The notes beneath the pieces are model-generated. The model was given only the letters and a program-made list of their open reading frames with translations, was not told the DNA's origin and searched no databases. From a virus (lineage: Duplodnaviria > Caudoviricetes): 64,000 nt of DNA. Below are positions 23,649-64,000 of the stretch, piece after piece. The stretch spans positions 1,910-65,909 of the IMG/VR virus record IMGVR_UViG_3300046010_000754; one strand, written 5' to 3'. Each line of letters begins with the position of its first letter. Position 1 is the first letter of the stretch. The position numbers were made by a program, and so were the translations under genes.

Positions 23649-24113
23649 ATGGCAACAATGGTAGACAGCAAGAAGGAGCAGCTATCCATACCTGAGATCA
23701 TCACTCGGGCGGCATATAACGACCCAGTTGAGGGCGTGCCTCCGTACGCTGCTATCTTGTCGATCATCAAAGAAGGCACTATGCCGAACACGGAAGTCAC
23801 GCAGTATGGCAACACCGTGTTTATCACCCACTTCAGTAAAGACCGTGACTTAGCGGTTAACCGTGCGCTGAGCGTCGATTCCGCTAAAAATTTCCTCACC
23901 AACGGGGAAGAATACTTCCGTGACTTGGTGCGTGGGGGCACAAAAAAATACGTTGCGCAATTTGACCGGCCCTCGTTTGCCACAGCGTTTATGGCGTTTA
24001 AGCGCAACCCCATCACGACCAAAATGAAAATGTGGATTGTGCAAACCCCCAAAGGACACACGCAGGTTCGTATTGCTTTGGATGGCGAACTTATTGAGGG
24101 GCGTAGAAAATGA
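23649..24113 (+). CDS. Unknown alpha/beta protein in the position of T7 gp13 / P22 gp14 (possibly GNAT-like)
   Basis: 154 aa, coupled (ATGA) to the first ejection protein; fold assignment is positional inference only. Confidence 0.6.
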   Translation: MATMVDSKKEQLSIPEIITRAAYNDPVEGVPPYAAILSIIKEGTMPNTEVTQYGNTVFITHFSKDRDLAVNRALSVDSAKNFLTNGEEYFRDLVRGGTKKYVAQFDRPSFATAFMAFKRNPITTKMKMWIVQTPKGHTQVRIALDGELIEGRRK

Positions 24114-27100
24114 GTTTTGTTGTTGACGCTATTGAAGATGTAGGCGACGCTGTTGGTGACGCATTAGACTGGGTGATTGACGAGGTTATTGACCCCGTGA
24201 TGACCACGGTCAGCAACGTCATTGAGTCCGCGCTCGACAACCCCGTTAAGACCATTGCACAGATCGCTGCGATTGCCACTCAGCAGTATTGGGCACTCCC
24301 ACTCATTGAAGGTGCAGACGTTGCCGCAAAGGGTGGCGATCTCGGGGATGTGCTGGAAGCCACGGCCAAAGCCTACGTTATGCAAGAAGTGGGCTCGTAT
24401 GTTGGTAAAGCGGCGGGCTCCTACGCAGGTACCGCAGCTACCGAAGCTGGCGCATCTGCGGCTTCTGCCAAGATTGCCGAAAACGTGGTGGGCGCAGCCG
24501 CAGGCTCTGCTGCCGTTGCAGTAGTCTCGGGGCAAGACCCAGTAAAGGCGTTCATTACAGGGGGAGTAGGCGCAGCAATGCCTGCTGTTCTTGGCCAAGT
24601 CAGCGGGTTCAAAGAACTACCCGGAAGCGCCCAACGTGTAATCTCCTCTGCGGTGTCTGCGCAGTTGTCGGGAGGCAACGTCACCGCTGCCGTAATCGGG
24701 TCTACTATTGCCGCCTCGGGCATTGTTACCGATGCGCTGAAGTCTTTTGACCCAGACGGTACAAAACTTGACAACACGCAACGCGCAATTCTGACTGATG
24801 TACTCATGGGCACTGCTACTGCCGCAATAACTGGTGGTAGCCCCTCAAACGTCATTAAATCGGCAATGATGAAAGCTGGCTCCAAGGCGCTTGGAGATAT
24901 GGCCACAAACGCGTTTAAGACCGCTACTGCCGAAGCAACCACCTCATACAACGCCGCATCCAAAGTGGCGGACAAGTTGGATGCAAACCAAGCCGCCCAA
25001 GCTACCGCAGCCAAAAACTACAACGATACAGCGGCGGCGTTGCAGAAAAAGATTGACGAGCAAAACAGACTTCAGACTGCGTACAACAATGCTGTTGCCG
25101 CACACAACGCAAACCCAAGCGAAGCTACTGCTAACGCCGCCAACGCTGCGATTGCAACTTACAACTCGTATGTAACAAACCTCAACAAAGAGTACAACGA
25201 CACGTTCAAACCCGCGCTGGACAAATACGGCGGGGAACTTGATTCGCTCAAGCAAGCGGGTGCGGTGCTTACCGGCGACTACGAAAAGGCTATCAAGGCG
25301 TTCTCAACAAAGACTGACACTATCTCGGACGTACTTGACCCAATCTACCGCACAAGTAATCGTGCGTTCGTAGAGGCGATGGATGACAAGTTTGACGCTG
25401 AGCAGTACCGCAAACTAAACGGGCTGGGTGCCGATGTTGACCCCTACGAGCACTTCTTGTCCAAAGGACAATTTGAAGGTGCGCCAACAAACAACAAGTC
25501 TGCTGAGCCGATCATTGCAGCAGAGCGTACTCGTCTTGTTACTCAGGCACTGGAAAGTAAGGGCGTGACGTTGGCTACGGCTGACCCCGCTGTGGTCTCG
25601 AAGATTCTGGACAACATCGACGCAAAGTACGGCAACAACGTCGGTGCAATGAAGGCGGCGTCCATCCAAGACGTGATCAGCGGAAACACCTCGTCAATCA
25701 ACACGCTGGTTGCAGATCAGCAGAACGGTGTATTCCGAGTCGAGGTTCGCGGTGGCAGCTACGGGGAGTGGAACAAGCCCCCGACAGACCGGTTCACTGC
25801 ACCTGCGGGTACCAAGCTGGCCTCGTTTGAGGCGTTCAACAACGGCACTGCCTCGCTGGTCTACGACACCAAGGGTAACCCAGTGTGGATTGAAAACGAC
25901 CCCCGCACTGCGGTTAAGTCGTGGAATCCAGCCCAAGGCGACACAACTCCAACAGTCACGATTGTTGGCAAGAGGCCAACTGAGCAAGAGAAGATTCTTG
26001 CCATGTCGGAACTGACAGGTGCAGATGCCGTCAACGGTGTGGTCTCGCAAGGCATGATCAATGCCGCCAAGACCCTCGTGGGCTGGGCCAAAGACACCGG
26101 GAACTCTACTGTCATCAACACAGCGGCCAACGTCATCAAAGCAGGCGGCGGGTTCATCGAGTCCATCAACGGCATCTCTGCACTGTTTGGTGCGGTGCCG
26201 AAAGACACGGCCATGGGCAAGTTTGCCAACGCGCTGAACAACATAGGTAAAGCCGGGAATACCGCGCAGTACCAAGCTGCAATCAAAGATGTCAAGGACA
26301 TGATCGGCAACGCCAAGGGCGTAGGCGGCACGCTGGCGGCTATCTACAAAGGCGCCACAACGTACCCGCTGGAGTTTGCTGCTGAGTTCATTGGTGTCGA
26401 AGGCTTCCAAGAGATTGCACCGTTCCTAATCGGTGGTGCAGCAACCACTGCTGCCAAAGGTTTGGCGCTGGCCCGAGGAGTCGGCCAACAACTGGCGACC
26501 CGTATTGGCAATGTGGCGGGTATGACCTCTGCAATCTCCACTGACGTGATCGAGTCAGCCGGTGGCGCTGCCGCAGGCGCGTTCGACGAAGCGTACAAAC
26601 TTGCTATCAAGAACGGCAAGAGCGAAGCTGACGCCACAAAGATTGCGCTGGACATCGCACAGAAATCCGGCATCGTCTCGGGTTTGGTGACCGCTGCCTC
26701 TATGGGGCTGGGCGGGGGTGCACTGGAGAAGGCAATCTTCAACGGCAAAGTCTCGGGTACCGGCTTCGGGGATGCGCTGAACAAGCTGGGCCAAGCTGCC
26801 AAGACCGGCACCCAGATCACCATCAAAGAAGGTGTATCGGAAGCTGGCGAGGAAGGTATCACCCAAGCGTTCTTGGAAGGTCAACTCTACAAGCTCGACC
26901 CGAACCGTGACGTAGCTGCAAACATCACTGCCGCCGCTGCCTTTGGCGCAATCGCAGGTGGCCCTATTGCTGGCACCGCGTACGCTGGCTCACAAGCAGG
27001 TGATGTGCTCTCCAACGCCATGATGGGCAACCCACAGATCGCCAGTGTTTTGGAAACCAACAAGGGCAACCCTGCCGCTGCTGATGCAGCACTGGCCAAT

Positions 27101-30100
27101 CTTGGTATTACCGATAACACGATCAAGTCCAACTTGATGAACGTCGTTGACGATACCAACTACACAAGTAGTCAAGAAGCTGCTGACACGTTGGCCAAGC
27201 GCAGCGATTATTCGTTCACCGGTGACGACGTGACTGCACTGACGGGCAAAGGCACCGATCTCACATTGGCCAGCCGTGTTGAGGCATACGTTGACCCCCG
27301 AGTGTTTGACCTTGCCGAAGTCAAAGCCGCCGCCGCTGCCGAAGGCTATACGCTCACAGACGCAGAAGCCGCCAAGTTGGTTGGCCAAAAGGATGAAGCT
27401 GCGGCCACCTCCGCCGCACGTGCCGAGTTTGACCCCAAGGCGACCAACTACGACGAAGCCAAGTCATTCTTTACCGACAAGGGCTACACACCCTCTGCGG
27501 ACGAGATCAAGCAGTTTGTCGGTAGCAAAGCTGAGTCCACACAGACCAAGGCTGTTGCAGACTACGTGAACCCTCGTCAGGTAACAACTGAGGAGGCAAA
27601 GAAGTACCTCACTGATCTGGGGTACAAACCAACCGATGCAGAAGTCAAACGGTTCGTTGGGCAAGTCAATGAAGCCGAGCAAGCCAAGGCCATCGGCACT
27701 TACGTTGACCCCCGCATGGTGGACGAGGGTGAGGTCAAGGCTGCATACGAATCACTGGGGCTGAAGAAGCCTACCGCCGATGACCTCAAGAAGTTGATGG
27801 GGCAGTACGATGAGACTGGGCTGACCGCCAAGGCTACTGAGTACCTGCCAACCGCACGGTTCAACTCCATCATGGCGCAGCTTGACGAGATGAGTTCTGG
27901 CGGTGTCAGCCAAGAAGCAAGGGACGCAATTGATCTGGTGCGTAAAGACCTCACGAAGTCGATTGCCGATACGGGGTTGGAGGTTGCCAAGGTTGCACTG
28001 AAGGTTGATAACGCCAAGGCCGATCTGGAAAAGGCCATCACCACTGCAACCAAAGGCTTGGCCACGCCTGCGGACGTGGATGCGGCTATCGCCAAAATTC
28101 AGTTCCCTGCTGGCCTGTCCAAAGAGGATGTCTCGTCTGCAATCAAGACTTACATGGAGGCCAACCCCGGCCTTAGCTTGGAAGACGTTGCGACAAAGAT
28201 CAGTGAAGCAACAAAGGGGCTGGCCACTTCTGAGGGCGTTAAGACCGAGATAGCCGCGGCTATCAAGGGGCTCGCCACAACCAAAGACATTGAGACTGCG
28301 ATCTCAAACATCAAGTTCCCTGCGGGGATCACCAAAGAAGATGTTGCCGCTGAGATCAAGACTTACATGGAGGCCAACCCCGGCCTATCCCTCGCGGATG
28401 TTGCATCGAAGATTGGGGATGCGACAAAAGGGCTTGCCACTTCTGAAGGTGTCAAGACCGAAATAGCTGCGGCAGTCAAAGGACTCGCAACCACTCAGGA
28501 CATTAAAGACGCCATCGCTGGGATTGAGTTCCCTGCGGGGCTGTCTAAGGATGATGTCTCGTCTGCAATCAAAATCTACATGGAGGCCAACCCCGGCCTG
28601 TCTATCGACGAAGTTGCAACGAAGATCGGTGATGCAACCAAAGGACTGGCTACTCCAGAGCAGGTAAAGACCGCAATCGAAACTGCGTTGACAGGGGTTG
28701 CCACAACCGCCGAAGTCAAAACTGCAATCTCAGACGCGCTCAAAACCACTGAAGGTCGGTTCGACACAATCGACAAAGCCATCCAAGACTTGCGTGACGC
28801 AGGGCTCACGGCAGAAGACGTTAGGGCTACGGTTGATAAGATCGTAGGCAGTGCTGGTACAGACAAAACTGCGGCCACGGGCATCTACGCGCACATCGAC
28901 GGGGTGAACACCAAGATCGACAACATCAATACGTTGATCGGTGCACCTGCCGAGGGCGATACGGCTGCGACTGGCCTGTACGCCAAGATTGCCGAGAACG
29001 AAGCCGCTGGCATGAAGCGCGAGGAAGCAACGCAAAAAGCGATTGCCGATGTTGCCGCTGACCTTGGCACCACCAAAGCCGACTTGCTCAAGTCGTTGGG
29101 CACCACCGAAGGCAACCTCACTCGCAAGATTGAGGGGCTGGAGACTGCACTGACGACCACCGAGAAGAACATTCTCGACAGAGTGAAAGAGTATGAGAAG
29201 GCTGGGCTTACCCGCGACGAGGCTACTCAGAAAGCCATCGAGACTGTTGCCGCAGACCTTGGCACTACCAAGGCAGACTTGCTCACTGCGCTCGGTACAA
29301 CGGAGGCAAACCTCACCAAGTCAATGACTGACCTGAGCACTCAGGTGTCTGACTTGAGCACCAAACTCGGGGACGTAGAGACCAACATCTTGTCGAAGAT
29401 GGCGGACTACGAAAAAGCTGGCATCGGTCGAGATGAGGCGCTGTCCAAAGCGATTGACGATGTTGCCGCAGACCTCGGCACCACCAAAGCAGACCTGTTG
29501 AGCCAGATTGGTACGACAGAAGCCACCCTGAAAGAAGAAGTCGGGCTGGTCGAAACAAACCTTGGTGCCAAGATTGCTGACGCCAAGGATGAAGTCCTCA
29601 AGGAACTGGGGCTGGCCAAGACTGGCCTGAGCGAAGAAATCTCAGCGTCCGAAGGAAGAACGGCTACCAAGATTGGTGATGTCGAGACCAACATCTTGGC
29701 AAAGATGGCCAACTACGAAAAGGCTGGCATTGGGCGCGACGAAGCATTGAGTAGGGCAATCGACGACGTGTCTGCCGAACTTGGCACCACACGCACTGAC
29801 ATCCTTACACAGATCGGCAAGACTGAGGCGAACCTCAAAGCTGATCTGGCCAGCACCAAGACTGAACTGAAGACTGACATCGGCACCGCCAAACAGGAAG
29901 TGCTGGACAGGGCGGCTGAGTACGAGAAGGCGGGTATTGCACGCGACCAAGCACTTCAGTTGGCGCAGGCAGACATGGCCAAGACCTTGGGTCAAGGCAC
30001 ACAGCAAGCCACGCAGTCTGATCTGGACGCAGTGATCAACCTGCTGCAAACCCAAGGTGCGTACGATGCGCAGTACGACTACAACGGCGACAGGGTAATC

Positions 30101-30544
30101 GACCAAAACGATAAGGTTGCGATTGAGAATTACCTCAACCGTTCACCCGATACTACTGCGCCGTTTACCCCTGCTGCTGGCTCCAAGTGGGCACCCACGG
30201 GCGTGTTCAAGACTGTGGCGGACGAGGCCGAGGCCACCCGTCAAGCGCAAGCTGCGGAAGCTGAGAAGACCCGCCAAGCTGCCACTCGTAACGCCGCTAA
30301 CCAAGCACGCTTGGGCAACATCAACTCCCTGACCAGCATGCTGGCGCAGGCAGGCGACACCGGAGGCCAACAAGTCACGGTAAAAGCTGCCGATCCTGCC
30401 AAGATTGGGTACATTTATGACTGGAACAGCATTTTCGCTAACCCATCACAGGAAAAGATGTTTGCGTCCCCTTTCGCACAGGGCGGCATGGTGGACGGCT
30501 CTGATGATGTAAACGAAGAATTGCTCAAGATATTGAAAGGCTGA
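24110..30544 (+). CDS. Giant Ala/Gly-rich internal virion (ejection) protein with multiple repeat arrays
   Basis: 2144 aa; hydrophobic G/A-rich segments, 71-aa tandem repeats, YEKAG repeats, EF-hand/dockerin-like loop, C-terminal FAQGG. Confidence 0.75.
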   Translation: MSFVVDAIEDVGDAVGDALDWVIDEVIDPVMTTVSNVIESALDNPVKTIAQIAAIATQQYWALPLIEGADVAAKGGDLGDVLEATAKAYVMQEVGSYVGKAAGSYAGTAATEAGASAASAKIAENVVGAAAGSAAVAVVSGQDPVKAFITGGVGAAMPAVLGQVSGFKELPGSAQRVISSAVSAQLSGGNVTAAVIGSTIAASGIVTDALKSFDPDGTKLDNTQRAILTDVLMGTATAAITGGSPSNVIKSAMMKAGSKALGDMATNAFKTATAEATTSYNAASKVADKLDANQAAQATAAKNYNDTAAALQKKIDEQNRLQTAYNNAVAAHNANPSEATANAANAAIATYNSYVTNLNKEYNDTFKPALDKYGGELDSLKQAGAVLTGDYEKAIKAFSTKTDTISDVLDPIYRTSNRAFVEAMDDKFDAEQYRKLNGLGADVDPYEHFLSKGQFEGAPTNNKSAEPIIAAERTRLVTQALESKGVTLATADPAVVSKILDNIDAKYGNNVGAMKAASIQDVISGNTSSINTLVADQQNGVFRVEVRGGSYGEWNKPPTDRFTAPAGTKLASFEAFNNGTASLVYDTKGNPVWIENDPRTAVKSWNPAQGDTTPTVTIVGKRPTEQEKILAMSELTGADAVNGVVSQGMINAAKTLVGWAKDTGNSTVINTAANVIKAGGGFIESINGISALFGAVPKDTAMGKFANALNNIGKAGNTAQYQAAIKDVKDMIGNAKGVGGTLAAIYKGATTYPLEFAAEFIGVEGFQEIAPFLIGGAATTAAKGLALARGVGQQLATRIGNVAGMTSAISTDVIESAGGAAAGAFDEAYKLAIKNGKSEADATKIALDIAQKSGIVSGLVTAASMGLGGGALEKAIFNGKVSGTGFGDALNKLGQAAKTGTQITIKEGVSEAGEEGITQAFLEGQLYKLDPNRDVAANITAAAAFGAIAGGPIAGTAYAGSQAGDVLSNAMMGNPQIASVLETNKGNPAAADAALANLGITDNTIKSNLMNVVDDTNYTSSQEAADTLAKRSDYSFTGDDVTALTGKGTDLTLASRVEAYVDPRVFDLAEVKAAAAAEGYTLTDAEAAKLVGQKDEAAATSAARAEFDPKATNYDEAKSFFTDKGYTPSADEIKQFVGSKAESTQTKAVADYVNPRQVTTEEAKKYLTDLGYKPTDAEVKRFVGQVNEAEQAKAIGTYVDPRMVDEGEVKAAYESLGLKKPTADDLKKLMGQYDETGLTAKATEYLPTARFNSIMAQLDEMSSGGVSQEARDAIDLVRKDLTKSIADTGLEVAKVALKVDNAKADLEKAITTATKGLATPADVDAAIAKIQFPAGLSKEDVSSAIKTYMEANPGLSLEDVATKISEATKGLATSEGVKTEIAAAIKGLATTKDIETAISNIKFPAGITKEDVAAEIKTYMEANPGLSLADVASKIGDATKGLATSEGVKTEIAAAVKGLATTQDIKDAIAGIEFPAGLSKDDVSSAIKIYMEANPGLSIDEVATKIGDATKGLATPEQVKTAIETALTGVATTAEVKTAISDALKTTEGRFDTIDKAIQDLRDAGLTAEDVRATVDKIVGSAGTDKTAATGIYAHIDGVNTKIDNINTLIGAPAEGDTAATGLYAKIAENEAAGMKREEATQKAIADVAADLGTTKADLLKSLGTTEGNLTRKIEGLETALTTTEKNILDRVKEYEKAGLTRDEATQKAIETVAADLGTTKADLLTALGTTEANLTKSMTDLSTQVSDLSTKLGDVETNILSKMADYEKAGIGRDEALSKAIDDVAADLGTTKADLLSQIGTTEATLKEEVGLVETNLGAKIADAKDEVLKELGLAKTGLSEEISASEGRTATKIGDVETNILAKMANYEKAGIGRDEALSRAIDDVSAELGTTRTDILTQIGKTEANLKADLASTKTELKTDIGTAKQEVLDRAAEYEKAGIARDQALQLAQADMAKTLGQGTQQATQSDLDAVINLLQTQGAYDAQYDYNGDRVIDQNDKVAIENYLNRSPDTTAPFTPAAGSKWAPTGVFKTVADEAEATRQAQAAEAEKTRQAATRNAANQARLGNINSLTSMLAQAGDTGGQQVTVKAADPAKIGYIYDWNSIFANPSQEKMFASPFAQGGMVDGSDDVNEELLKILKG
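28050..28700 (+). repeat. Three tandem 213-nt (71-aa) repeats
   Basis: TACATGGAGGCCAACCCCGGCCT at 28151, 28364 and 28577. Confidence 0.9.
28990..29990 (+). repeat. Degenerate helical repeats YEKAG..RDEA...AI.DV.A.LGTT
   Basis: 4-5 copies visible in protein and DNA (CTYGGCACYAC at ~29063, 29258, 29474, 29780). Confidence 0.8.
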
Positions 30545-34263: not shown

Positions 34264-37200
34264 ATGGACTTTCAGACCGCGCTGGCCGCGATGCGTAACG
34301 CAGAAGCGGCGGGTAACTTTGAGGATGCCAAAACACTGGCGCAACTTGCACAGCGCCTCCGAAATAGTTCCCCCGAAGAATCTGATCTTGAGTCCCGCCT
34401 GCAACAGTTACGCGCCGAACGTGAGGAACTGCTCAAGCCAAAACCTACTGTCGGTGGGTATGCCAAAGAAGCCTTCAAGGGGTTGGTACCCGGCGCGATT
34501 GGTCTGGCCGAAACCGCAGGAACTGGCATCGCATCCATGCTGCCCGACAGCACGGAAAAGGCCGCACGCGAGAAAATCAAAGAGCTTGCCGGTCTCGCCA
34601 AGAAGCCGTTTGAAGCCGCACCGGGGTATGAAGATTCGGTCGTGCGTAAGCTGAGCGAAGGCTTGGGCTCAACACTGCCGTTCTTTGCCGCTGGCCCGTT
34701 TGGTCTGGCTGGCCGTGTAGCCGCTGGTGGTCTGGGCGTTGCCGCTGGCGCTGGTGAAGCACGTGAGTCCGCTGAAGCCAAGGGTGCTACTGCTGACGAA
34801 CGCCGCGCCGCCACCCTGCTGGGTGCACCTACTGGTCTGCTCGACTTGCTGGCACCACAACTTGGCCCACTCAAGAAAGTCTTGGGCAAAGAACTTAGCT
34901 CAGTTCAGTCCTTGATGGGCACCGCCGTAGCACGTGGTGGTATTGAAGGCGCAACGGAAGCTGCGCAGAAGATTGCACAGAACCTGATTGCCAAGGGCGT
35001 GTACGACCCAAGCCAAGAGATTCTCGTTGGCTCAGGAGAAGAAGGTGCCTATGGCGCTGGAGTCGGTGCACTGGCCAGCTTGATTGTTGACATGACCATT
35101 GGCCGCAAGGCTCGTCGTGCATCGCTGGGTCTGGACAAAGAAACCCCCGAAACCGATACCAAACCCAAGACTCCCGAACAACAACTGTTGGGGTACACCG
35201 CCGAACCATTCACCCCTGTGGCGTTGCCTGACGGCTCTGTCATCACGTCCAAAGCCGAATACGACGAGTACGTTAAGTCCAAAGAAGGCACCGCACGTCA
35301 GCGTGAGGAAGACCTCCGCACCTCCGACCCATTGGCTGCGCTGTCGTCATTTGATCGTACCCTTGCACGCCGTGGCAAAGAAGCCGCGCTGGAAGAAACA
35401 TTCAAGTCTCAAGAGCCTGACTTGCTCGGCGAGCTTACCCCCGCACGGGAGCGGGTCGAAGAACAGCCCAAAGCCGAGGAAGACCCCTTTGCCGTAAAGC
35501 GGGACGACAAGACCCGCGACATGATCGACGAGTTGGAAACCCAACAAGTTGAGGAGTTGTACGCAAAGGACGAACGCGCTGCCGCTGAAAAAGAGCGCCT
35601 GAAGTTTGAGTCCGACCTTGCCGAACTGACTGGCAAGATGGAGCGTAAGCAGGAGAAAACATCTGAGGACAACCGCCTTCAGTTGCTGCTGCCGATTGTC
35701 GAGTCCAACGTCAAGAACATCCCCAAGGTGTTTGTCACAGAACTCAAGCGTGCAGGTTTTACCAACACCAACCTGACTGATCGTGAGCGCAACCTCATCA
35801 ACCGTGCCTACGATATTCGTCTGGCCGAGGAGCCCGTGGCTGAAGCCGAACAGGAGGTGCAAGCCACCGAGGGGCAGAAGAAAGAACTGCGTTCCATCGA
35901 GTCGTTGATCCCTGAAAAGAAGCCACAGCGTGCACAGGAGCAGATGGGTTTCCCCGGCATGGGCAAGCCGAAGGGTGCCGCACCCCAAGCCTTCTCCGAG
36001 GAGGAACTCGCGTCTCAGGAAAAGCCATTCACTGGCCGCTCTGACGAAGCCCCTCGCTCGTACACATCCACAGCACCGTTCCAAACTGTGCTGACACCGG
36101 AAGTGCTGACCGCCGCTGGCCTGCCCAAGCAGTCGGGCTTCTACAAGCAGTTGCTGAACATGGACATGGCCGACACCGCTCAACAGCCGGTCGTCGCAAA
36201 CATCTTCGGGCGTATCCGCACCAACCCCAACCTGTCTGCACCTACCAAGGATGCCGTAGAGAAACTGGCGATGCAGGCGTTTGGCGGTTTGGCCAAGCAA
36301 GGTGACATGTTCGTACCCGCCAAGCCAACCAAGGCTGCTAAGGAGGACAAGAAAGATGCGACTGCAACAAAACCCGCAGCCGGAAAATCCGCTGAACGAG
36401 GACGTGATAAGGACGCAGGAGATGTCGCTGGAGGAACTGGAACTCGCGCTGAAGATCGCAAAGAGAGCGGTCGAAAGGACGAGCGCACTGGAGCCCCTGC
36501 TGATACCAAGCGAACTGAAGCACCTAAGTCCGCTGGACTGGGAGATCGTGGGAAACCTGCTGGTGACGCTGGAAGTCGAGCAAGCGTGGAGTCGGGTGCA
36601 CTGAAGAAGACCGAACCCAAGACCGAGGCTAAGACAAAATCTACCGTTGATGTGGCGTGGGGGATGCTCCAACGTGCGGAAGCAGCCCAGCGCGAAGCAG
36701 ACGAAGCCGCTAAGGGTAAACCCGAAGCCAAGACTGAAGCCAAGGGCAAAGCCAAGACCGAAGCTAAGCCCAAACCTAATGCAAGTTTTGGTGCATACGG
36801 CCAAGTGATGGAAGCAGAGAGTAAATCCGATGCGCTCGACTATCTGGCATACGACATGTACGTGGCCATGTTCGAGAAGTTCAAGCTGCTCACCCGTGTC
36901 AGCACGCTCAATGACATCAACGCACAACTGCGCGAAGGCAAACTCCCCGGTGAAGTTGCGTTCGGTCGTGAAGGTACAACGTCGATTGTCCCGCTGAGCG
37001 GTGGCAAGTACGCCAAGACGTTCTACGAATCCCTGTCTGCCGCCGACAAGAAAGCGCTGGCCCGAAAGATGGCAGACTACTTTGGCAAGTCTGAAACTGA
37101 AGTCCGCCGTGGAATCGAAAGCGCCAACGCTGCCCAAGCACTGTCCCGCGCCAACGTCGAGCAGTTCAAAGGCGATGAGTTGGAACTCGCACGTGACGCT

Positions 37201-40200
37201 GTTGTACTGTCCCTGCCCTTGCACCCTGCCATCCGTAAGGCGCTGAAGGCTGGTGATCTGCGCGGTGCTCTGACCATGCTGGGCTCGCAGAACCTTGGCC
37301 GTGCATCCGAAGTCGCCAAGAAATTGGCTGGCGCAATCGGCAAGACCAAGATCGAGTTGGAGCCCATGCTCCTCAACGCCGAGGACATTCCGGTCGCTGG
37401 CCTGTACGACCCCAAAACTGACACCATCAAGCTGGACGCGCAGGAAGGTATGAACCTTCACGTGCTATTACATGAAGCGGTACATGCTGCTACATCACAT
37501 GTCATAGATAACAAGTCACACCCTGTGACTAAACAACTCACCGAGCTTTACAACAACGTCAAAGACTCGCTGGACACAGCGTACGGCGCACAGTCGTTGG
37601 ACGAGTTCGTCGCCGAAGCATTCAGCAATCCTGAGTTCCAGCAGAAGTTGGCGGCAATCAACCCCAAGGGTGAGGCGATCACTGCATGGCAACGCTTCAC
37701 GCACGCCATCCGCAACTTTGTACGTTCCCTCATGGGGAAGGATACCAAGGGCATGGGCTCCGCACTCGACGCTTCGGACTCCATGATCGACGCCATCTTG
37801 TCGCCTGCCCCTGAGTCTCGCGGCGCTGGCTCGCTGTACTCGGCGGCTCTGTTGGGTAAGGGTGCCGAAGTATTCAAAGGCATAGACAACCGAATCCTGT
37901 CCATGCCGGTAATGAACAACGACACGATTGCACGGGTGTACGACATGGTGCGTAACGCACCGCAGACTGTCAAGAAAATCATCTTGCGCAGCCTGCCGCT
38001 GAACGTGCTGACCGAGGTCGCATCCAAAGATGTTCCCATGGCATCCAAGCTCAACGAGTTGGAGCGGCTGTGGAACGGTGCAAAAGACAAGCGCATGCGT
38101 GAGACCAACGCCACCATGTCGCGCATCCAGAACTGGGTGAAGGGTAACCCTGAGAAAGAAGTTATCCTGAACAACGTCATCGCCACCAGCACGCTGGAGC
38201 AGGTTGACCCCTCCAAGTCCCGCGCCGACTACAAGGGCAAGCAGTCCGAGAGCGGTGCAGACAAGCAGAAGATTTGGGATGAGTTGCAAGCCGAGTGGAG
38301 CAAGCTCGGCCCTGAAGGTCAAAGCGTCTACAAGCAGATGCGCGACACGTACAAGAAAACGTACGAGGACTTGCTCGATCTGTTGATGAAGCGCATCGAC
38401 GACTCCGTTGAGAACAAGGAAGATGCCAAGAAACTGCGCACTGAGATTTATCAGCGCCTTGCCACCAAGGGCAAGATCGAGCCTTACTTCCCCCTGACAC
38501 GTACAGGTGACTTCCGTCTGTCGTACGACCTCAAGGGCGAGCACTACGTCGAGCACTACGAGACATCAGTTGCGCGTGAGCGTGCGATCAAAGAGTTGGA
38601 AACCGCTGGCGGGGCCAAGAATGTGCAACGGTTCAAGGGCGGCTCCAAGCGCACCTACAAGGATGCACCTTCCACCTCGTTCGTGAACTCTATCTTGCGA
38701 ACACTTGAAGCCAACAAAGTCGATCCAGAAGTGACCGATGAGATCATGCGTACGTTCTTGTCAACACTGCCTGAGTCGTCATTCGCTCAAGCGTTCCGCG
38801 CTCGTAAGAACACCCCCGGCTTTAGCTTCAACGCAACGGGCGCGTTCTACTCACGCTCCATGAGTATGGCCCATCAGTTGCCAAACATGGAGTACAGCGC
38901 CAAGGCGTACAAACTGCGCGACGAGATCGACGAGTACGCCAAGAAGAAGGGCGACGAGCAGACCCGCCTCGTGGCCGACGAGTTGAACAGCCACATCCAA
39001 ACGCTGGTCAGCCCCAACATTGCGCCGTGGTCTAAGGGCGTGACCTCGTTGGTATTCGGCTGGACGCTGGGCCTCAACGTGTCGTCCGCTGTGGTCAACA
39101 TGTCACAGGTGCCGTTGGTGATGTTGCCTTACCTTGGGGGTAAGTACACCTACCCCGAAACCATGAAGGCCATTGGCTTCGCTACCAAGGTGTTCATGGG
39201 CAGTGGCCGCAAGCGCATGGTCAAGATGACGGTGCCCACCGCTGACGGTAAAGAAACCATCGAACAAACAGGTGGCTTCTCGCTGGACAACTACGACTTT
39301 GATGCCAAGGGCACCCCGCCAGAAATCAAACGCCTCAAAGAGTTGTCAGAGATCGCCGACAAGTACGGTTTGCTCGACCGCTCCATGACAAGCGACATGC
39401 TCGACATGAACGAGAAGGCGTCCCCGCTCGACCGAGTTAACGCATGGTCTGGGTTTATCTTCCACCACGGCGAGCGCATGAACCGCCAGATTTCGCTCAT
39501 CGCTTCCTACGAGCTTGAGCTTGGCCGCATGGCCAAGGAAGGCAAGAAAATTGATGCCGCCGCACGCACCGAAGCGGCCAAACGCGCCGTGGAGATTGCC
39601 GAGATCATGAACGGTGGTGCGTCCGCAAGTAGCGCACCTTTGCTGGCAAAGAACTCGCTGGGCAAGATCATGTTCATGTACAAGCGGTACGGTGTGACCA
39701 TGTACTACATGATGTTCAAGACGGCCCGTGAAGCCATGAAGTCCGAAGACAAGAAAGTCCGCGATGCCGCCATGCGCCAGATCGCCGGTATCTACGCATC
39801 CGCTGGCCTGATGGCTGGGGTGCAGGGTCTGCCGATGTTCGGTATCGTCGCCGCTGTCTACAACATGTTCAAGGACGACGACGAGGATGACTTTGAAACC
39901 GCCGCACGTAAGTACCTCAAGGAAGGTATGTTCAACGGCGCGGTCAACTACTTCACTGGCACGGCTGTCGCCAACCGTATCGGCTTGTCCGATCTGCTGA
40001 TCAACAGCACGGGGTACAAAGAGCAGGACAACGCGATCTTGTCGTTCTTGCAACTCGTGGGTGGCCCAGCATACGGCGTAGCCGACCGACTGGTGCAGGG
40101 TGCCAAGCTGATCAGCGAAGGTGAGACTCTGCGTGGTCTGGAGCGCATGGCCCCCTCGGGTGCGGCCAACGCCATGAAGGGTATTCGGTTTGGGACTGAG

Positions 40201-40611
40201 GGTGCCAACACCCTGCGCGGCGACCCCATCACGGGTGACATCAGCGCGTACAACGCTGGCGCACAGTTCCTCGGGTTTGCACCTGCCGAGTACACACGTC
40301 AGTTGGAAATCAACGCCTCTGAGAAAAACATCGAGCGTCGAGCACTCAAGGAGCGCACCAAGATTCTGCGTGACTACTACGTTTCCGCACGTGTTGGTGA
40401 TTCCGAGGGGATGTCAGACGCGATTGAAGACATGCTGAAGTACAGCAATCGGCACCCCACCCATGCAATTACTGCCGATACCGTGAGCAGGTCTATGGCT
40501 CAACACATGAAGACATCACAAGAGATGTACCACGGTGTGACGCTCAACAAGAAGTTGCGGTCTGAGTTGTTAGCGGACGCCGCCGAGTTTGATGGCGACT
40601 TCTTCGAGTGA
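34264..40611 (+). CDS. Large polyvalent ejection protein with zincin metallopeptidase domain
   Basis: 2115 aa; G/A-rich hydrophobic N-terminus; LLHEAVHA...DEFVAEAF (37471-37620); last gene of the virion operon, like gp16-type proteins. Confidence 0.75.
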   Translation: MDFQTALAAMRNAEAAGNFEDAKTLAQLAQRLRNSSPEESDLESRLQQLRAEREELLKPKPTVGGYAKEAFKGLVPGAIGLAETAGTGIASMLPDSTEKAAREKIKELAGLAKKPFEAAPGYEDSVVRKLSEGLGSTLPFFAAGPFGLAGRVAAGGLGVAAGAGEARESAEAKGATADERRAATLLGAPTGLLDLLAPQLGPLKKVLGKELSSVQSLMGTAVARGGIEGATEAAQKIAQNLIAKGVYDPSQEILVGSGEEGAYGAGVGALASLIVDMTIGRKARRASLGLDKETPETDTKPKTPEQQLLGYTAEPFTPVALPDGSVITSKAEYDEYVKSKEGTARQREEDLRTSDPLAALSSFDRTLARRGKEAALEETFKSQEPDLLGELTPARERVEEQPKAEEDPFAVKRDDKTRDMIDELETQQVEELYAKDERAAAEKERLKFESDLAELTGKMERKQEKTSEDNRLQLLLPIVESNVKNIPKVFVTELKRAGFTNTNLTDRERNLINRAYDIRLAEEPVAEAEQEVQATEGQKKELRSIESLIPEKKPQRAQEQMGFPGMGKPKGAAPQAFSEEELASQEKPFTGRSDEAPRSYTSTAPFQTVLTPEVLTAAGLPKQSGFYKQLLNMDMADTAQQPVVANIFGRIRTNPNLSAPTKDAVEKLAMQAFGGLAKQGDMFVPAKPTKAAKEDKKDATATKPAAGKSAERGRDKDAGDVAGGTGTRAEDRKESGRKDERTGAPADTKRTEAPKSAGLGDRGKPAGDAGSRASVESGALKKTEPKTEAKTKSTVDVAWGMLQRAEAAQREADEAAKGKPEAKTEAKGKAKTEAKPKPNASFGAYGQVMEAESKSDALDYLAYDMYVAMFEKFKLLTRVSTLNDINAQLREGKLPGEVAFGREGTTSIVPLSGGKYAKTFYESLSAADKKALARKMADYFGKSETEVRRGIESANAAQALSRANVEQFKGDELELARDAVVLSLPLHPAIRKALKAGDLRGALTMLGSQNLGRASEVAKKLAGAIGKTKIELEPMLLNAEDIPVAGLYDPKTDTIKLDAQEGMNLHVLLHEAVHAATSHVIDNKSHPVTKQLTELYNNVKDSLDTAYGAQSLDEFVAEAFSNPEFQQKLAAINPKGEAITAWQRFTHAIRNFVRSLMGKDTKGMGSALDASDSMIDAILSPAPESRGAGSLYSAALLGKGAEVFKGIDNRILSMPVMNNDTIARVYDMVRNAPQTVKKIILRSLPLNVLTEVASKDVPMASKLNELERLWNGAKDKRMRETNATMSRIQNWVKGNPEKEVILNNVIATSTLEQVDPSKSRADYKGKQSESGADKQKIWDELQAEWSKLGPEGQSVYKQMRDTYKKTYEDLLDLLMKRIDDSVENKEDAKKLRTEIYQRLATKGKIEPYFPLTRTGDFRLSYDLKGEHYVEHYETSVARERAIKELETAGGAKNVQRFKGGSKRTYKDAPSTSFVNSILRTLEANKVDPEVTDEIMRTFLSTLPESSFAQAFRARKNTPGFSFNATGAFYSRSMSMAHQLPNMEYSAKAYKLRDEIDEYAKKKGDEQTRLVADELNSHIQTLVSPNIAPWSKGVTSLVFGWTLGLNVSSAVVNMSQVPLVMLPYLGGKYTYPETMKAIGFATKVFMGSGRKRMVKMTVPTADGKETIEQTGGFSLDNYDFDAKGTPPEIKRLKELSEIADKYGLLDRSMTSDMLDMNEKASPLDRVNAWSGFIFHHGERMNRQISLIASYELELGRMAKEGKKIDAAARTEAAKRAVEIAEIMNGGASASSAPLLAKNSLGKIMFMYKRYGVTMYYMMFKTAREAMKSEDKKVRDAAMRQIAGIYASAGLMAGVQGLPMFGIVAAVYNMFKDDDEDDFETAARKYLKEGMFNGAVNYFTGTAVANRIGLSDLLINSTGYKEQDNAILSFLQLVGGPAYGVADRLVQGAKLISEGETLRGLERMAPSGAANAMKGIRFGTEGANTLRGDPITGDISAYNAGAQFLGFAPAEYTRQLEINASEKNIERRALKERTKILRDYYVSARVGDSEGMSDAIEDMLKYSNRHPTHAITADTVSRSMAQHMKTSQEMYHGVTLNKKLRSELLADAAEFDGDFFE

Positions 40612-40612
40612 T

Positions 40613-40645
40613 AAAAAAGCCCCCACCTATACTGGGGTGGGGGCT
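40613..40645 (-). terminator. Intrinsic terminator at the convergence of the two genome arms
   Basis: 10-bp stem AGCCCCCACC/GGTGGGGGCT with a 6-T tail on the - strand. Confidence 0.88.
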
Positions 40646-40690
40646 AATCCTCTTTCCAAGGAGAAACGAAGTGACATCCACAATGTCAAG
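40613..40690 (-). ncRNA. Candidate small RNA antisense to the shared early/middle-gene RBS motif
   Basis: Extended -10 TGtGATAAT (40704-40696), 5' hairpin UGACAU/AUGUCA, seed CACUUCGUUUCUCCUUG (40673-40657), terminator. Confidence 0.5.
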
Positions 40691-40699
40691 GCGATATTA

Positions 40700-40963
40700 T
40701 CACAGTCGTCTCCAAATGCGAACCCCCCAGCGTCCGTCTTCAATGCCGGGGCGGTAGTGGACGACCCACTCCCACGAAGATGTTATCTGGTGAACCTGAC
40801 GTACGAGTTCCAGCGTGTTCACGCAGGGGATAAACACGGAGGCTCCCGCAGGGAACTTGTCCCAGCGGACGACGATTCGCACCCCATCGGGTGCGAGATC
40901 ATCAAGCCTGACCCTGTTTCTCGAACAGCGCGGCGGTTGTCGCCAGAGCTTGCTCAGTTTCAT
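40700..40963 (-). CDS. Small hypothetical protein (possible DNA-binding)
   Basis: 87 aa, overlaps primase end; WDKFPAGASVFIPC...GVRIWR. Confidence 0.6.
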   Translation of the reverse strand: MKLSKLWRQPPRCSRNRVRLDDLAPDGVRIVVRWDKFPAGASVFIPCVNTLELVRQVHQITSSWEWVVHYRPGIEDGRWGVRIWRRL

Positions 40964-45458: not shown

Positions 45459-45732
45459 CGTTGGCCTCCGCATTCAATTTCTGTTGGGCGATGGCAAGGC
45501 CGTAGGCTTGCTTGGTCTGGTCGATGTAGTTCTCGAACGGCACACCATGCTCGACTGCGGCCAAGGCATAGATTTCAGCCAGTGCGGTCAGCAGAATCGG
45601 CGTGGTGATCTCGCGCTCTGCATGCACCTTGCGGATGCCCTGCATGATGGCAGTCTTGAGGTCTGTCATCGTGCGAACCGACTTCATCAGTTCCTCGGCA
45701 CGGCGTTGTTTGTAGTCTGGAATGTCTGACAC
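45451..45732 (-). CDS. Hypothetical protein
   Basis: GTG start with GGAGAACGAA RBS directly downstream of a sigma70 promoter. Confidence 0.65.
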   Translation of the reverse strand: MSDIPDYKQRRAEELMKSVRTMTDLKTAIMQGIRKVHAEREITTPILLTALAEIYALAAVEHGVPFENYIDQTKQAYGLAIAQQKLNAEANDD

Positions 45733-45761
45733 TTCGTTCTCCGTTTGTTGTTGGAATCTTT

Positions 45762-51242: not shown

Positions 51243-51726
51243 CTTGCACCTGTGTTGTTGGGAAATACGTGTTCATCACTTCGCGGTAATCGAACTCCTC
51301 GGTGAAGCAGTCTTCGATGCTCACGTAGTCCAAGCCCGTCCGCACCACCGCATCGTTGTAGACAAACATGTGTGACGGCACTGACAGTCGGCTGTGAACA
51401 AAGTCATGCCCGTCAAGCGTTGCTCTCCACACGCCGCTCGTCTTGACCTTCTCCGAGTCGGGCTCACGTGCTTGCACCAGCCCCCAATACTTGAGGTGCC
51501 CGATAGAGTTGGAGCGCAACATGAACATGGGCACATCGTTACGAGTGTTGACCCATCCGTTCTCGGCACCCGCTGAGTTGCTCACGAGCCACGCCAATGA
51601 ACGCGCCATGCCGCTTGTCAGTTTGACCTTGTTGATCTTGCCCCACCGATCACACACAGGGCAGTAGCCGCCGTCCGATTCGATGGTGTTGCGCCAGTTG
51701 TGACGCAGTGTTGATTCTTCTGTCAT
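51223..51726 (-). CDS. Hypothetical protein with CxxC and winged-helix-like region
   Basis: CPVCDR; LKYWGLV...SGVW.AT..G; CAAGGAGAAACGAAG RBS. Confidence 0.7.
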   Translation of the reverse strand: MTEESTLRHNWRNTIESDGGYCPVCDRWGKINKVKLTSGMARSLAWLVSNSAGAENGWVNTRNDVPMFMLRSNSIGHLKYWGLVQAREPDSEKVKTSGVWRATLDGHDFVHSRLSVPSHMFVYNDAVVRTGLDYVSIEDCFTEEFDYREVMNTYFPTTQVQDGLNNN

Positions 51727-51748
51727 CTTCGTTTCTCCTTGTTGTAAG

Positions 51749-52054
51749 TTAGGGAGTCCCTAACATTTCCTTGAGCTTCATCTTGTAGTGACGAAACTTG
51801 CCAGCATCATCGCTGTCTTTCTTGCCAGCACGCATGCCGTACTTGATGCAGTTGCCCTTGAGGTACCCAATGAATTCCTCGCGTGACAACGTAGCCTCCA
51901 TCACTTCCCATGGCTGTACGCCCATGTCTTTGTAATGGGTGCCACCAACTTGCAGGTCGTCTGCTTTTACTTCGGTCATTTCAACTCCGTCTGTATCAAT
52001 GCGGGGGTCATAACATGCGCACCCCCGTTCTGCGCATCCTCTATCAGCGATCAC
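51749..52054 (-). CDS. DUF3310 (SaV-like) protein
   Basis: QVGGTHY..MGVQPW...GYLKGNCIKY..RAGKK...D..K. Confidence 0.85.
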   Translation of the reverse strand: MIADRGCAERGCACYDPRIDTDGVEMTEVKADDLQVGGTHYKDMGVQPWEVMEATLSREEFIGYLKGNCIKYGMRAGKKDSDDAGKFRHYKMKLKEMLGTP

Positions 52055-54838: not shown

Positions 54839-54908
54839 CTTCGTTTCCTTCATTGTTAATTTGTTAGGGAGTCCCTAACACGGTACGTGAAGCGCACGTA
54901 CCAACGCA

Positions 54909-57257: not shown

Positions 57258-57319
57258 CTTCGTTTCCTTGTTTGTTAGGGAGTCCCTAACTTGGTTTGGG
57301 TTAGCCACTGCGTGGCTGG

Positions 57320-57517
57320 TTAAGCGCGTCTGTTCCACAGTCGCACTGCTTCGTCACGTGTACGCCCCATGCACTCGATGGGTTTGAGCACAGGCTTGCC
57401 CCCATCTTTGCACCAGTGCAGTACCGATACAGAGAACACACCCGTTGTCGAGTTGCGTTCACGTATTTCTACCTCATGCCCACCACAGAACGGGCACGGT
57501 TTAATTTGCTCAGTCAT
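57320..57517 (-). CDS. Lar-like restriction-alleviation protein
   Basis: IKPCPFCGG...EAVRLWNRRA signature. Confidence 0.7.
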   Translation of the reverse strand: MTEQIKPCPFCGGHEVEIRERNSTTGVFSVSVLHWCKDGGKPVLKPIECMGRTRDEAVRLWNRRA

Positions 57518-57699
57518 GACCGCTCCTCCATGAACTTGGCATGCGCGGCAACGAGTTGCTCACGCGCTTCCTTGCTCTCAATGAACATCACCATCATGCG
57601 TTTCAATGAACGCGCCTCGTCCTTGTACTTGAACATCGCCGCAGTTGCGAGTACCGCCCATGCGAACAACGCCATCTCAGTCAAAGTAATCTCAATCAT
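57514..57699 (-). CDS. Small membrane protein
   Basis: N-terminal hydrophobic helix; ATGA overlaps on both sides. Confidence 0.55.
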   Translation of the reverse strand: MIEITLTEMALFAWAVLATAAMFKYKDEARSLKRMMVMFIESKEAREQLVAAHAKFMEERS

Positions 57700-58913
57700 G
57701 ACCAGTCCTCCACGTGTACATACTTGCCCACATCAGGTCGGGCGTTCCTGTTACCAACGATGCACCACAGTACGGGGCATGCCCACTGACCCCACGAACC
57801 ACCGAGGTAGCCGTCAGTCAACACGATCACCGCTTGCGGTTTAACACCATGCTGTGTCATGTACTCAGGCACACACTCCACCACAGTGCCACCACCACCC
57901 GCAGGTTTGGTCGATTGGATGATGTTCGCTACCTCAGTGCCAACGTACTTCTCGTCCGCACACACCTCGGTGTCCCAATACAAGAGGCGCACTACGTCAG
58001 GGTTGACCTGATCACAGATACCCTTGACCTCGCCCAAGAACTTGGACAACTCGCGCCCACCGATGGAGCCCGATGTGTCGATGGCAATGACCAACTCACC
58101 CACCTGTTCGCTCACACCCGATGGCATGTAATAGCCCGATGACACGAACCTACGGTTGGGCCGCCGCCACGTCGAGTAGTCGCTACCCTGACACGTTGTG
58201 GCAATGAACTCACGCAACATCTCGCGCCAGTCGATCTTGGTTTCGAGCAAGTCATCGAACATCCGATCACCACCCGAGCCGAGCTTGCCAGCCGCCAGTG
58301 CGCCTTGACGTATCGCTTCATCGAGGTCACGTGCTAACTGCTTGCCTTGCTCAGGAGTCATGTCCCGAGCGCCCTCCCAGTCGTGATCATCGAGACCAGT
58401 TCCCGAGGGTGCGCCTGAGCCGTCACCATCACCCGAGCCGCCACCTTGCCCGCCCCCGGAATCCTGTTGGTCGTCCTTCAATAACTTGTACACCTGTGCG
58501 CTGTCCATGCCACGGTACTTGGCATCACACAGTCCGACCTTGGGCATGATGGCAAAGCCATCGCTGTTGTCATCGGTCAGCTTGATGTTGATCACGTAGT
58601 CGCACGCCGCATTCGCAAGCTGTGCGTTGTCCTCATACAGATGACGCCACGTAGTCAGGTGCCGATACAGTTTGTGGTAGCACTCGTGCAACACGAGGAA
58701 CCGTAGCTCTGCATCACTGAGGGTCTCAATGAACGCACGTCCATACATCTCATCACGCCCGTTGGTGCATGCGGTCTTGGTCTTGTCGTCCACTGTGCGT
58801 GAGCCGATCATCAGTACGCCAGCGAGGGCGACATACTTGGGCGAACCCATGATGTCCACCACTGCCTTGCTGAGCCGTTGCTCAGCGGTTAGTTGTTTGC
58901 CTATCATCAGCAT
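57696..58913 (-). CDS. DUF2201-type metallopeptidase + vWA domain protein
   Basis: TACTNG, LHECYH (HExxH), DDHDW, MIDAS DTSGS, GGGGT, LTDGY. Confidence 0.9.
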   Translation of the reverse strand: MLMIGKQLTAEQRLSKAVVDIMGSPKYVALAGVLMIGSRTVDDKTKTACTNGRDEMYGRAFIETLSDAELRFLVLHECYHKLYRHLTTWRHLYEDNAQLANAACDYVINIKLTDDNSDGFAIMPKVGLCDAKYRGMDSAQVYKLLKDDQQDSGGGQGGGSGDGDGSGAPSGTGLDDHDWEGARDMTPEQGKQLARDLDEAIRQGALAAGKLGSGGDRMFDDLLETKIDWREMLREFIATTCQGSDYSTWRRPNRRFVSSGYYMPSGVSEQVGELVIAIDTSGSIGGRELSKFLGEVKGICDQVNPDVVRLLYWDTEVCADEKYVGTEVANIIQSTKPAGGGGTVVECVPEYMTQHGVKPQAVIVLTDGYLGGSWGQWACPVLWCIVGNRNARPDVGKYVHVEDWS

Positions 58914-58914
58914 T

Positions 58915-59031
58915 TCATTTCTCCTTGATGCACTGACATTCGCCAGCGCCTTTGATACATACGTGGAAGTCGATGAGTCCGACCATCCCCGCCAGTGTGC
59001 AAAGCACGAAAGCCCATCCGAGGAATCTCAT
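58915..59031 (-). CDS. 38-aa Cys-rich membrane peptide (absent from ORF track)
   Basis: TAAGGA RBS; MRFLGWAFVLCTLAGMVGLIDFHVCIKGAGECQCIKEK*. Confidence 0.5.
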   Translation of the reverse strand: MRFLGWAFVLCTLAGMVGLIDFHVCIKGAGECQCIKEK

Positions 59032-59063
59032 ACCGTGTCCTTAGTTGTTAGGGAGTCCCTAAC

Positions 59064-60158: not shown

Positions 60159-60209
60159 GATGTTTCTTTCTGTTTGGTTAGGTTAAGTTGTTAGGGAGTC
60201 CCTAACTTG

Positions 60210-61097: not shown

Positions 61098-61178
61098 TTC
61101 GTTTCCTTGTTTGTTAGGGATTCCCTAACTGGGTTTGGGTTTGTTTATCGACAAGGCGAATTCCGAGTCGATGGTTGT

Positions 61179-62310: not shown

Positions 62311-62370
62311 GGGTTAGTCCTTTCATGACTGTGGTGTAACACGTGATAACTTGTTAGGGATTCCCTAACA

Positions 62371-62950: not shown

Positions 62951-62956
62951 TTGGGG

Positions 62957-63177
62957 CTCGCCGCCGCTTTAGGAACTGGTTTCACGTGTTAGGGAGCCCC
63001 CTAACAAGCCGGGAACTAACCACGTGGCGTATCACGTGATGGCTTGTTATAGTGAGTGTGTGAGCCTGTGGCTCATGGCGCGGGGCACGTAACGCTCGTC
63101 TGCCCCCTTCGGGGCCGCTCGTGCCACTCGCCGCCGCTTCAGGAACTGGTATCTTTTGTTAGGGAGTCCCTAACAAG
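62957..63177 (+). repeat. ~51-bp imperfect direct repeat, each copy ending in the palindrome
   Basis: CTCGCCGCCGCTTYAGGAACTGGT...TGTTAGGGAG..CCCTAACAAG at 62957-63008 and 63127-63177. Confidence 0.85.
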
Positions 63178-63855: not shown

Positions 63856-64000
63856 GGTAATGGCACGATCTGTCACGATCTGTTAGGGATTCCCTAACAT
63901 TTCAGAATTGGGGATAGGCCGAACCCACCCGTACGCCACCCCCCGCTGTATGGTTAGGAGTCCCTGTGGCCGCCTTGGTATGCTATTCCGCACAAATGTC

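Follow-up and report, generated by a model that had tools for sequence, protein, structure and literature searches.

A probable small-RNA gene between converging phage gene arms and its complementarity to translation-start regions of the same phage

The gap between the two gene arms

The two gene arms of an uncultured freshwater phage converge on a gap of 88 bp, and the question raised by this gap is whether it encodes a small RNA that acts on the messages of the phage itself. The DNA analyzed, referred to here as the window, comprises 64 kb of a 65.9-kb IMG/VR virus record that is rated complete. The original prediction, which was made from the letters of the window, had placed in the gap one trans-acting RNA that could occlude the ribosome-binding sites (RBSs) of a whole regulon. 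The two arms and the parts of the small-RNA element that occupies the gap between them are as follows.

Genes up to 40611, + strand: the + arm, with terminase, capsid and two proteins of about 2100 aa
64000 down to 40700, − strand: the − arm, with DNA polymerase A, an SNF2 helicase, a PD-(D/E)XK nuclease, an AAA ATPase and its DUF2201 partner, a Lar-like protein, a 951-aa prim-pol/DUF927 primase-helicase and a terminal 87-aa gene
40700–40963, − strand: the 87-aa gene, last of the − arm, with its stop codon inside the predicted −10 of the small RNA
40694–40702, − strand: predicted extended −10, TG-A-TAATAT, the TGA of which is the stop codon of the 87-aa gene
40613–40687, − strand: putative small RNA some 75 nt long, extending from G40687 through the last U of the U run, as judged from the fold and a covariance model
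40672–40688, − strand: 5′ hairpin of 7 pairs with the core GACAU/AUGUC, the 3′ arm of which also belongs to the target-complementary stretch
40656–40675, − strand: seed directed against translation-initiation regions (TIRs), complementary to a Shine-Dalgarno sequence, the spacer and the start codon and extending over the initial bases of codon 2
40612–40645, both strands: intrinsic terminator (stem 40645–40618, then a T run), with a strong U tail on the − strand and a terminator-like score on the + strand too

Read on the − strand from 40702 to 40612, the element holds TGTGATAAT and consists, in order, of the extended −10, the 5′ hairpin, the stretch complementary to start regions, and the terminator. 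The extended −10 was present as originally predicted, but not in the register TGtGATAAT, as the relatives described below favour TG-A-TAATAT, two bases downstream. This −10 was not called by a consensus promoter scan because the −35 region is weak, and the putative 5′ end at G40687 was placed from the spacing of 6 to 7 nt after the −10. The hairpin and the intrinsic terminator that had been read on the − strand of the gap were borne out by the fold and by a terminator scan. It was found that the 90-nt fold has an energy of −32.5 kcal/mol (z = −3.7), and that none of 200 shuffled sequences folded as well; the fold in the window comprises the 5′ hairpin, a weak second hairpin that partly sequesters the seed, and the terminator. 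Because the terminator scores on both strands, both arms probably end there. A covariance model built from relatives found a single copy in the window, at 40613–40687 with 80.4 bits, and the covariance-model search gave one copy per phage source. A CsrA sponge was also considered and rejected, the GGA motifs being confined to the window's copy.

The giant genes of the + arm lie at 24110–30544 and 34264–40611. The giant protein of 2115 aa contains an LPD39 domain and is matched by PHROGs of the DarB-like antirestriction type, and for that of 2144 aa no Pfam, PHROG or PDB sequence match was found; the proposal that the latter is an N4-like virion RNA polymerase was rejected, as there was no match among solved structures. 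On the − arm, the Lar-like restriction-alleviation protein adjoins the DUF2201 metallopeptidase/VWA protein and the AAA ATPase (57323–57517, 57699–58913 and 59067–60158), and the three genes may be an anti-defence or host-takeover cluster. The 87-aa gene had no Pfam or PHROG family match, and neither an integrase nor a repressor was found among the 45 proteins scanned.

A megablast of the region against GenBank phages returned nothing, and tblastn of the primase against phages gave distant matches only, the best being Pseudomonas phage Rollin (29.5%). A search of bacterial genomes with the primase found no relative that would point to a host. Phage DNA was found in 20 sequencing runs from lake, sludge and other aquatic metagenomes, all available as assembled contigs. 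Four runs were compared with the window, of which two were RNA, one was probably DNA and one was of unspecified kind; none of the assembled contigs of the two RNA runs lay over 40562–40709.

Conservation of the element among related phages

The conservation of the element was evaluated in two samples of related loci that were drawn by primase homology. The first contained 46 IMG/VR loci with 54–97% identity, 38 of which had the primase end; 3 of these were too short, and 35 were scored. All 35 had TGATAnnAT, a hairpin 6–7 nt further on, a stretch with UCUCC, and a G+C-rich hairpin that leads into a U run, and in all 35 the element directly followed the stop codon of the homologue of the 87-aa gene. 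A second sample was drawn with a primase 47% identical to that of the window, because the pattern scan described below fixes the hairpin sequence by construction. In this sample, where the scored loci had at least 294 nt downstream, the −10, the 5′ hairpin, UCUCC and the terminator were carried by 15/15 loci (10 of them read by eye, with no scripted fold).

Considering both primase samples, T-G-A-T-A-n-n-(A/G)-T was found in 52/52 loci, which comprise 39 distinct sequences. Its T-G-A-T-A and final T were invariant and the A before the final T was present in 95%, whereas the two central positions agreed in only 49% and 59%, and the next six bases in 33–59%. At the level of sequence, an invariant TGATA/T with free central positions is the signature of an extended −10 that shares a stop codon. 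The relatives mostly had a GACAG/CUGUC hairpin at the same place as that of the window, and distant lineages had wholly different stems, read by eye as AACAAG/CUUGUU, GGGUGG/CCACCC, GCGGU/ACCGU and GACUGACG/CGUUAGUC. The terminator was represented in the relatives by 26 distinct stem sequences, every one of which was a G+C-rich hairpin followed by a U run. UCUCC was present in 45/45 distinct family sequences, to which a CTCC filter had been applied beforehand.

In some lineages, namely C (L032–L039, L043 and L100) and D (L061–L076), the loop of the 5′ hairpin contains a second pyrimidine block, which is UCUCUCC or CCACCUCC, the latter resembling the ribosome's own tail. The RNAs of those lineages thereby have two anti-Shine-Dalgarno stretches each, as in sRNAs of Burkholderia and Neisseria.

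A pattern scan gave 53 viral stretches, and a hairpin and T run followed in 47/47 newly fetched loci (by eye), all of these pattern-derived loci carrying the hairpin sequence by construction. The same pattern in 596 Gb of bacterial genomes gave 6 matches compared to about 7 expected by chance according to our own arithmetic, and a terminator followed none of them. Synteny was evaluated at 19 representative loci of the pattern-found lineages: the primase was present in 19/19, the 87-aa gene in 19/19 (with homologues of 40–80% identity that end directly before the element in all 19), and the converging giant gene in 18/19, the nineteenth locus ending before this gene could appear. The identity of the flanking proteins in these lineages went down to 26–47%.

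RNAalifold on a MAFFT alignment of all lineages recovered part of the terminator only, because the hairpin was misaligned, and stems were instead counted by script. A covariance model of lineage A recognized 22/47 sources at E ≤ 0.01 and missed the distant lineages, and for this reason it was unusable for covariation counts. The promoter, 5′ hairpin, seed and terminator are kept at one syntenic spot across the phage clade, which supports a discrete small-RNA gene. We regard it as highly probable that the element is a conserved small-RNA gene.

Complementarity to start regions in the window and in relatives

The initiation regions of three genes in the window were considered as predicted targets.

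51719–51741, − strand: initiation region of gene 51726, the best predicted target (duplex of −31.4 kcal/mol)
45727–45744, − strand: initiation region of the 93-aa gene, which has a GTG start (−21.2 kcal/mol, one bulge)
58910–58927, − strand: initiation region of gene 58913, for the DUF2201 metallopeptidase/VWA protein (10-nt contiguous complement, −21.8 kcal/mol)

The 15-mer CAAGGAGAAACGAAG was found exactly twice in the window, at 40657–40671 on the + strand and at 51727–51741 on the − strand, and the second copy directly precedes the ATG of gene 51726, so that the exact complement (15/15) claimed in front of this gene was confirmed. When up to 3 mismatches were allowed, the 15-mer had 7 matches compared to 1.71 expected, and 0/100 shuffles reached 7. 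Gene 51726 encodes a protein of 167 aa that belongs to phrog_2693, of unknown function, and lies directly upstream of the DNA polymerase gene. The pairing of the seed with this gene would comprise 20 pairs with one bulged A and span the AUG and the next five bases.

The start contexts that had been quoted for genes 44752, 58913, 57257, 61097, 54838, 45732, 47324 and 53816 were all as written, and the predicted targets in the window lie 4.9–20 kb from the element on the same strand. The difference between the arms was evaluated with our own heuristic gene-start calls, on which the following counts rest. A contiguous seed complement of at least 9 nt was found at 7/39 starts of the − arm and 0/38 starts of the + arm, which is the enrichment at − strand genes that had been expected, whereas 300 seeds with a shuffled 5′ half matched a mean of 0.69 and a maximum of 4 starts. 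With a 16S-like tail as the control seed, there was no difference between the arms. Similarly, ACGAA was present within 14 nt of the start in 9/39 genes of the − arm and 0/38 of the + arm (Fisher p 0.0023), in agreement with the earlier observation that late + strand starts are without this extension. The proposal of a whole regulon came out weaker than it had been put: the genome-wide background is about −19 to −24 kcal/mol, only gene 51726 stands clear of it, and the other genes that had been named have 7–11 nt of complement, some of it bulged.

The relatives were then examined for covariation of seed and target, a check proposed with the original prediction. The longest perfect complement to the pre-terminator RNA was sought in the whole upstream flank of 58 deduplicated loci, with no gene calls. 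The mean length of this complement was 11.7 nt in the sense orientation and 8.2 nt in the antisense orientation, and the sense complement exceeded the antisense one in 45 loci, equalled it in 10, and fell short of it in 3. In 53/58 loci the best site was at the start of an open reading frame (ORF) of at least 40 aa. A best match of 17–19 nt was obtained in 13 loci, one of 13–15 nt in 7 and one of 10–12 nt in 19; the other 19 loci had no more than 9 nt, which is no better than antisense.

The long matches are of the type GGAGAA(A)CGAAG-start-ACAG and lie before a 135–138-aa gene, or before a 93-aa gene that is inserted ahead of it. The 135–138-aa gene of the relatives corresponds to the 142-aa DUF7307/phrog_13900 gene of the window, and the perfect matches of 17–19 nt were at the orthologue of the 93-aa gene or at the neighbouring 135–138-aa DUF7307 gene. 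In four distant lineages, windows of 3.4 kb around the DUF7307 gene contained matches of 7–10 nt only (antisense 7–12 nt) and no long match.

When the RNAs of 14 lineages were compared with the gene starts of the same lineages in an own-versus-other matrix, the diagonal sum was, for each of four measures, greater than in any of 20,000 permutations; lineages D, E and F ranked their own RNA poorly (4th to 13th of 14 on the main measure). The triplet of the RNA opposite the start codon agreed with the start codon of the target in 21/24 lineage-A loci, of which 17 were CAC/GTG and 4 were CAU/ATG; one of the remaining loci disagreed (L021), and in two no such leader was found. The 4 CAU/ATG loci come from two lineages, which also differ in the spacer on both partners: AACGAA + ATG pairs with CAU-UUCGUU in one variant and AAACGAG + ATG pairs with CAU-CUCGUUU in the other, compared to the majority version of a GTG start paired with CAC. 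Covariation was thus positive in the matrix, the flank scan and the start-codon triplet, with counts that overstate the number of independent events because the lineages are related.

For gene 51726 itself, exact complementarity was absent in the orthologues of three complete relatives, where the A-run lengths were off by one base in either direction. Because the A-run lengths differ in relatives, the 15/15 match in the window is partly luck within a family of similar leaders. No homologue of gene 51726 was found in lineages B and C, for which the records searched were partial.

The leader module together with the first codons (M/V-T-E/D-E) was found before non-homologous genes, namely the 167-aa, the 93-aa and the 135–138-aa DUF7307 genes (window; L070, L018, L004 and L014). 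Because the same leader and first codons precede non-homologous genes in different lineages, the module does move, and it appears to do so by recombination.

Two sets of repeats were also observed in the − arm. A 17-bp palindrome, GTTAGGGA-n-TCCCTAAC, has about 11 copies that are in intergenic regions of the − arm only, between 47232 and 63898 (for example, 51748–51764, 54863–54879, 57274–57290, 59047–59063, 60190–60206, 61113–61129, 62353–62369, 63158–63174 and 63882–63898), and its half-site TCCCTAAC gave 22 matches compared to 0.97 expected. If folded, it would have a 7-bp stem and a 3-nt loop. It lies 4–14 nt upstream of the Shine-Dalgarno sequence of the next gene, including four leader-tagged genes, and is present too in a lineage-B′ relative. 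Possible roles of the palindrome are those of an operator or of a hairpin for RNA processing or stability; a role as a hairpin-type promoter, by analogy with N4, is our speculation. Six AAAACGAACA(T/A)TA-type repeats, arranged as three pairs, occupy 62367–62952 inside the lowest-GC part of the window (49.5%); they have the ACGAA word in common with the early leaders and could be an origin, iterons or an operator array.

Alternative readings, known systems and a proposed mechanism

Several alternatives to a small RNA that acts on the phage's own genes were weighed. The one that survives best, although we consider it unlikely as the main explanation, is a host-directed anti-Shine-Dalgarno RNA, the UCUCC core of which would bind many host RBSs and damp or reprogramme host translation, with pairing to phage leaders being secondary; it is compatible with action on the phage's own genes and may coexist with it. 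In line with this alternative, UCUCC is the only part of the seed that is invariant across all lineages, and lineage C has the second CU-rich block in the hairpin loop noted above. Below the Rfam threshold, full-length matches were also obtained to anti-hemB and to RF02278 (33.7 bits, E 2e-4 over 2.3 kb). Reports on the Burkholderia double-hairpin sRNAs describe RNAs of 57–92 nt with a hairpin, a terminator hairpin and unpaired CU-rich stretches complementary to RBSs, and an RF02278 family whose overexpression slows growth (PMC5688073, PMC4603805). In form, the element resembles RF02278 (Betaproteobacteria toxic sRNA; ncS03, ncS05, ncS27 and ncS62). It has a hairpin, a terminator and a CU-rich stretch, and in the window this stretch lies partly in the weak extra hairpin. 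Because 33.7 bits is below the gathering score of 50, the likeness is a resemblance and not membership; no gathering-level match was found anywhere in the window, and in six relatives RF02278 gave 27.8 bits for one (L042) and no match for the other five. RF02278 moreover has three to five dispersed chromosomal copies in Burkholderia, whereas the element is phage-borne and single-copy, and its seed runs through the spacer and start codon of specific phage genes. What argues against a host-directed RNA is that covariation with the phage's own leaders extends to the flanks of the seed and to the anti-start triplet, which would be needless for host targeting, and that the pattern scan of 596 Gb found the element in no bacterial genome.

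A slightly less probable alternative is that there is no separate RNA and that the element is the 3′ UTR and terminator of the replication operon, in which the anti-TIR stretch would act in cis by long-range pairing or as a 3′-end stabilizer. The terminator is common to the element and the upstream operon, and when 170 nt are folded the seed is able to pair with the last part of the 87-aa gene, both of which are consistent with this reading. On the other hand, the invariant TG-n-TA..(A/G)T with variable central and downstream positions is the pattern expected of a −10, the hairpin always begins 6–7 nt after this signature, at the predicted start, and the targets are 4.9–11 kb upstream, partly behind likely transcription-unit boundaries that are marked by the palindromes.

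It is improbable that the element is a DNA-level relic or protein site, that is, an inverted copy of the mobile leader module that arose by recombination or gene conversion, or AACGAA words bound by a phage DNA- or RNA-binding protein, with no regulatory RNA. The movement of the leader and first codons between non-homologous genes would fit a relic, and the AAAACGAAC-type repeats, present six times at 62367–62952, would fit the relic or protein site. Yet over the time in which the proteins diverge to 26–47% identity, a mere relic would be expected to retain neither the promoter and terminator nor a 5′ hairpin whose stems change in a compensatory manner, and gene conversion between inverted repeats of 17–19 nt that are several kilobases apart is unlikely.

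Finally, the alternative that the motif is merely the RBS of a genuine + strand gene of 28 codons that starts at GTG 40671 can be dismissed as very improbable: although there is a good Shine-Dalgarno sequence and spacing before the GTG in the window and most lineage-A relatives, the ORF is not conserved in length (7 to 77 aa), in peptide (unrelated groups among 27 distinct sequences) or in start (no start codon 4–13 nt after GGAG in 10/27, including all of lineages B, B′ and C), and the GTG is explained because it mirrors the GTG start of the targets.

We return to a small RNA that acts on the phage's own genes, and compare it with known systems. The c4 RNA is cut out of the leader of the operon that it controls, and the P4 CI RNA is related to it. 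By analogy of function, c4 of P1/P7 is the closest known system; a review describes c4 as an RNA of about 77 nt that blocks a gene of its own phage by short complementary blocks around the RBS, from a separate position (PMC12197685). Like c4, the element is, as computed, complementary to the RBS region of a gene of the same phage that is encoded elsewhere. Unlike c4, which belongs to temperate phages and to immunity, it is found in an apparently virulent phage and would include the start codon in the pairing. It is predicted to be transcribed from a promoter of its own, situated where the replication arm ends, a layout that speaks against excision from an operon leader. For 40500–40800, 12 Rfam families were listed when E values up to 10 were allowed, and C4 was not one of them.

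Type I 3′-end-embedded sRNAs such as MicL and DapZ have their own promoter in the end of the upstream gene, share its terminator and repress in trans, and are chromosomal and stress-regulated. The element would be similar in that the conserved −10 overlaps the upstream stop codon in 52/52 loci, and different in that the −10 uses the stop codon itself and the predicted targets are the phage's own genes. The RegA repressor and RegB nuclease of T4 are proteins that shut off many early messages late, at Shine-Dalgarno and start regions; the proposed logic is similar, with RNA instead of protein. The lambda OOP and P22 sar RNAs are cis-antisense RNAs that overlap their target gene, whereas the predicted targets here are distant and on the same strand, and overlap with the + arm is limited to the terminator. 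The phage small RNAs described in the review are mostly of temperate phages and prophages, and mostly have host genes or immunity as targets (PMC12197685). Among full-text search results and in one section of 10.1101/2024.10.31.621285, such a family was not found described in uncultured or virulent phages; PMC12197685 lists 38 phage sRNAs of unknown function, which may be relevant here. The predicted element would be a variant form of the antisense regulators of phages, of which P1 c4 is one.

The following mechanism is proposed. Host RNA polymerase would start at the extended −10, the TGA of which also terminates the reading frame of the final − arm gene. The RNA would have the hairpin first, then the pyrimidine-rich stretch, and then a terminator in common with the upstream operon, a layout that would be that of a 3′-end-embedded sRNA with its own promoter. 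The stretch from the hairpin 3′ arm through UCUCCUU mirrors the initiation module GGAGAA(A)CGAAG-start-ACAG, which the phage sets before some early or replication genes, and both complementarity and covariation were observed for this step. By pairing over the Shine-Dalgarno sequence and start codon, the RNA would keep 30S subunits off the messages, and as it accumulated with genome copy number, the tagged genes would be translated less. The main target would be gene 51726 in the window and, in most relatives, the 135–138-aa DUF7307 gene or the 93-aa gene before it.

Of the original idea that one trans-acting RNA occludes RBSs, the conserved small-RNA gene and the covariation speak for the RNA, whereas most of the targets named in the window fall within the energy background. 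Overall, we think it rather probable that a trans-acting small RNA, about 75 nt in length, is transcribed from the gap and represses the phage's own leader-tagged genes, and we infer a possible role for this RNA as an early-to-late or lysis/latency switch. A broader interpretation is offered tentatively: a clade of uncultured, apparently virulent freshwater and sludge phages may time its early and replication genes with one RNA that co-evolves base for base, including the choice of GUG or AUG, with a leader-start module moved by recombination, and any gene gaining the module would fall under the control of the RNA.

If this is true, the RNA would play a part like that of RegA and RegB in T4, and the leader module would serve as a portable 'regulon tag'. 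Comparative data alone define the RNA family by a fixed genomic address, a recognizable promoter, covariation down to the start codon, and a gene-hopping leader module. If confirmed, the system would represent RNA-based temporal control over a phage's own early translation, and it would provide a rule to predict the controlled genes in metagenomic phages as well as a compact, orthogonal repressor-and-tag pair.
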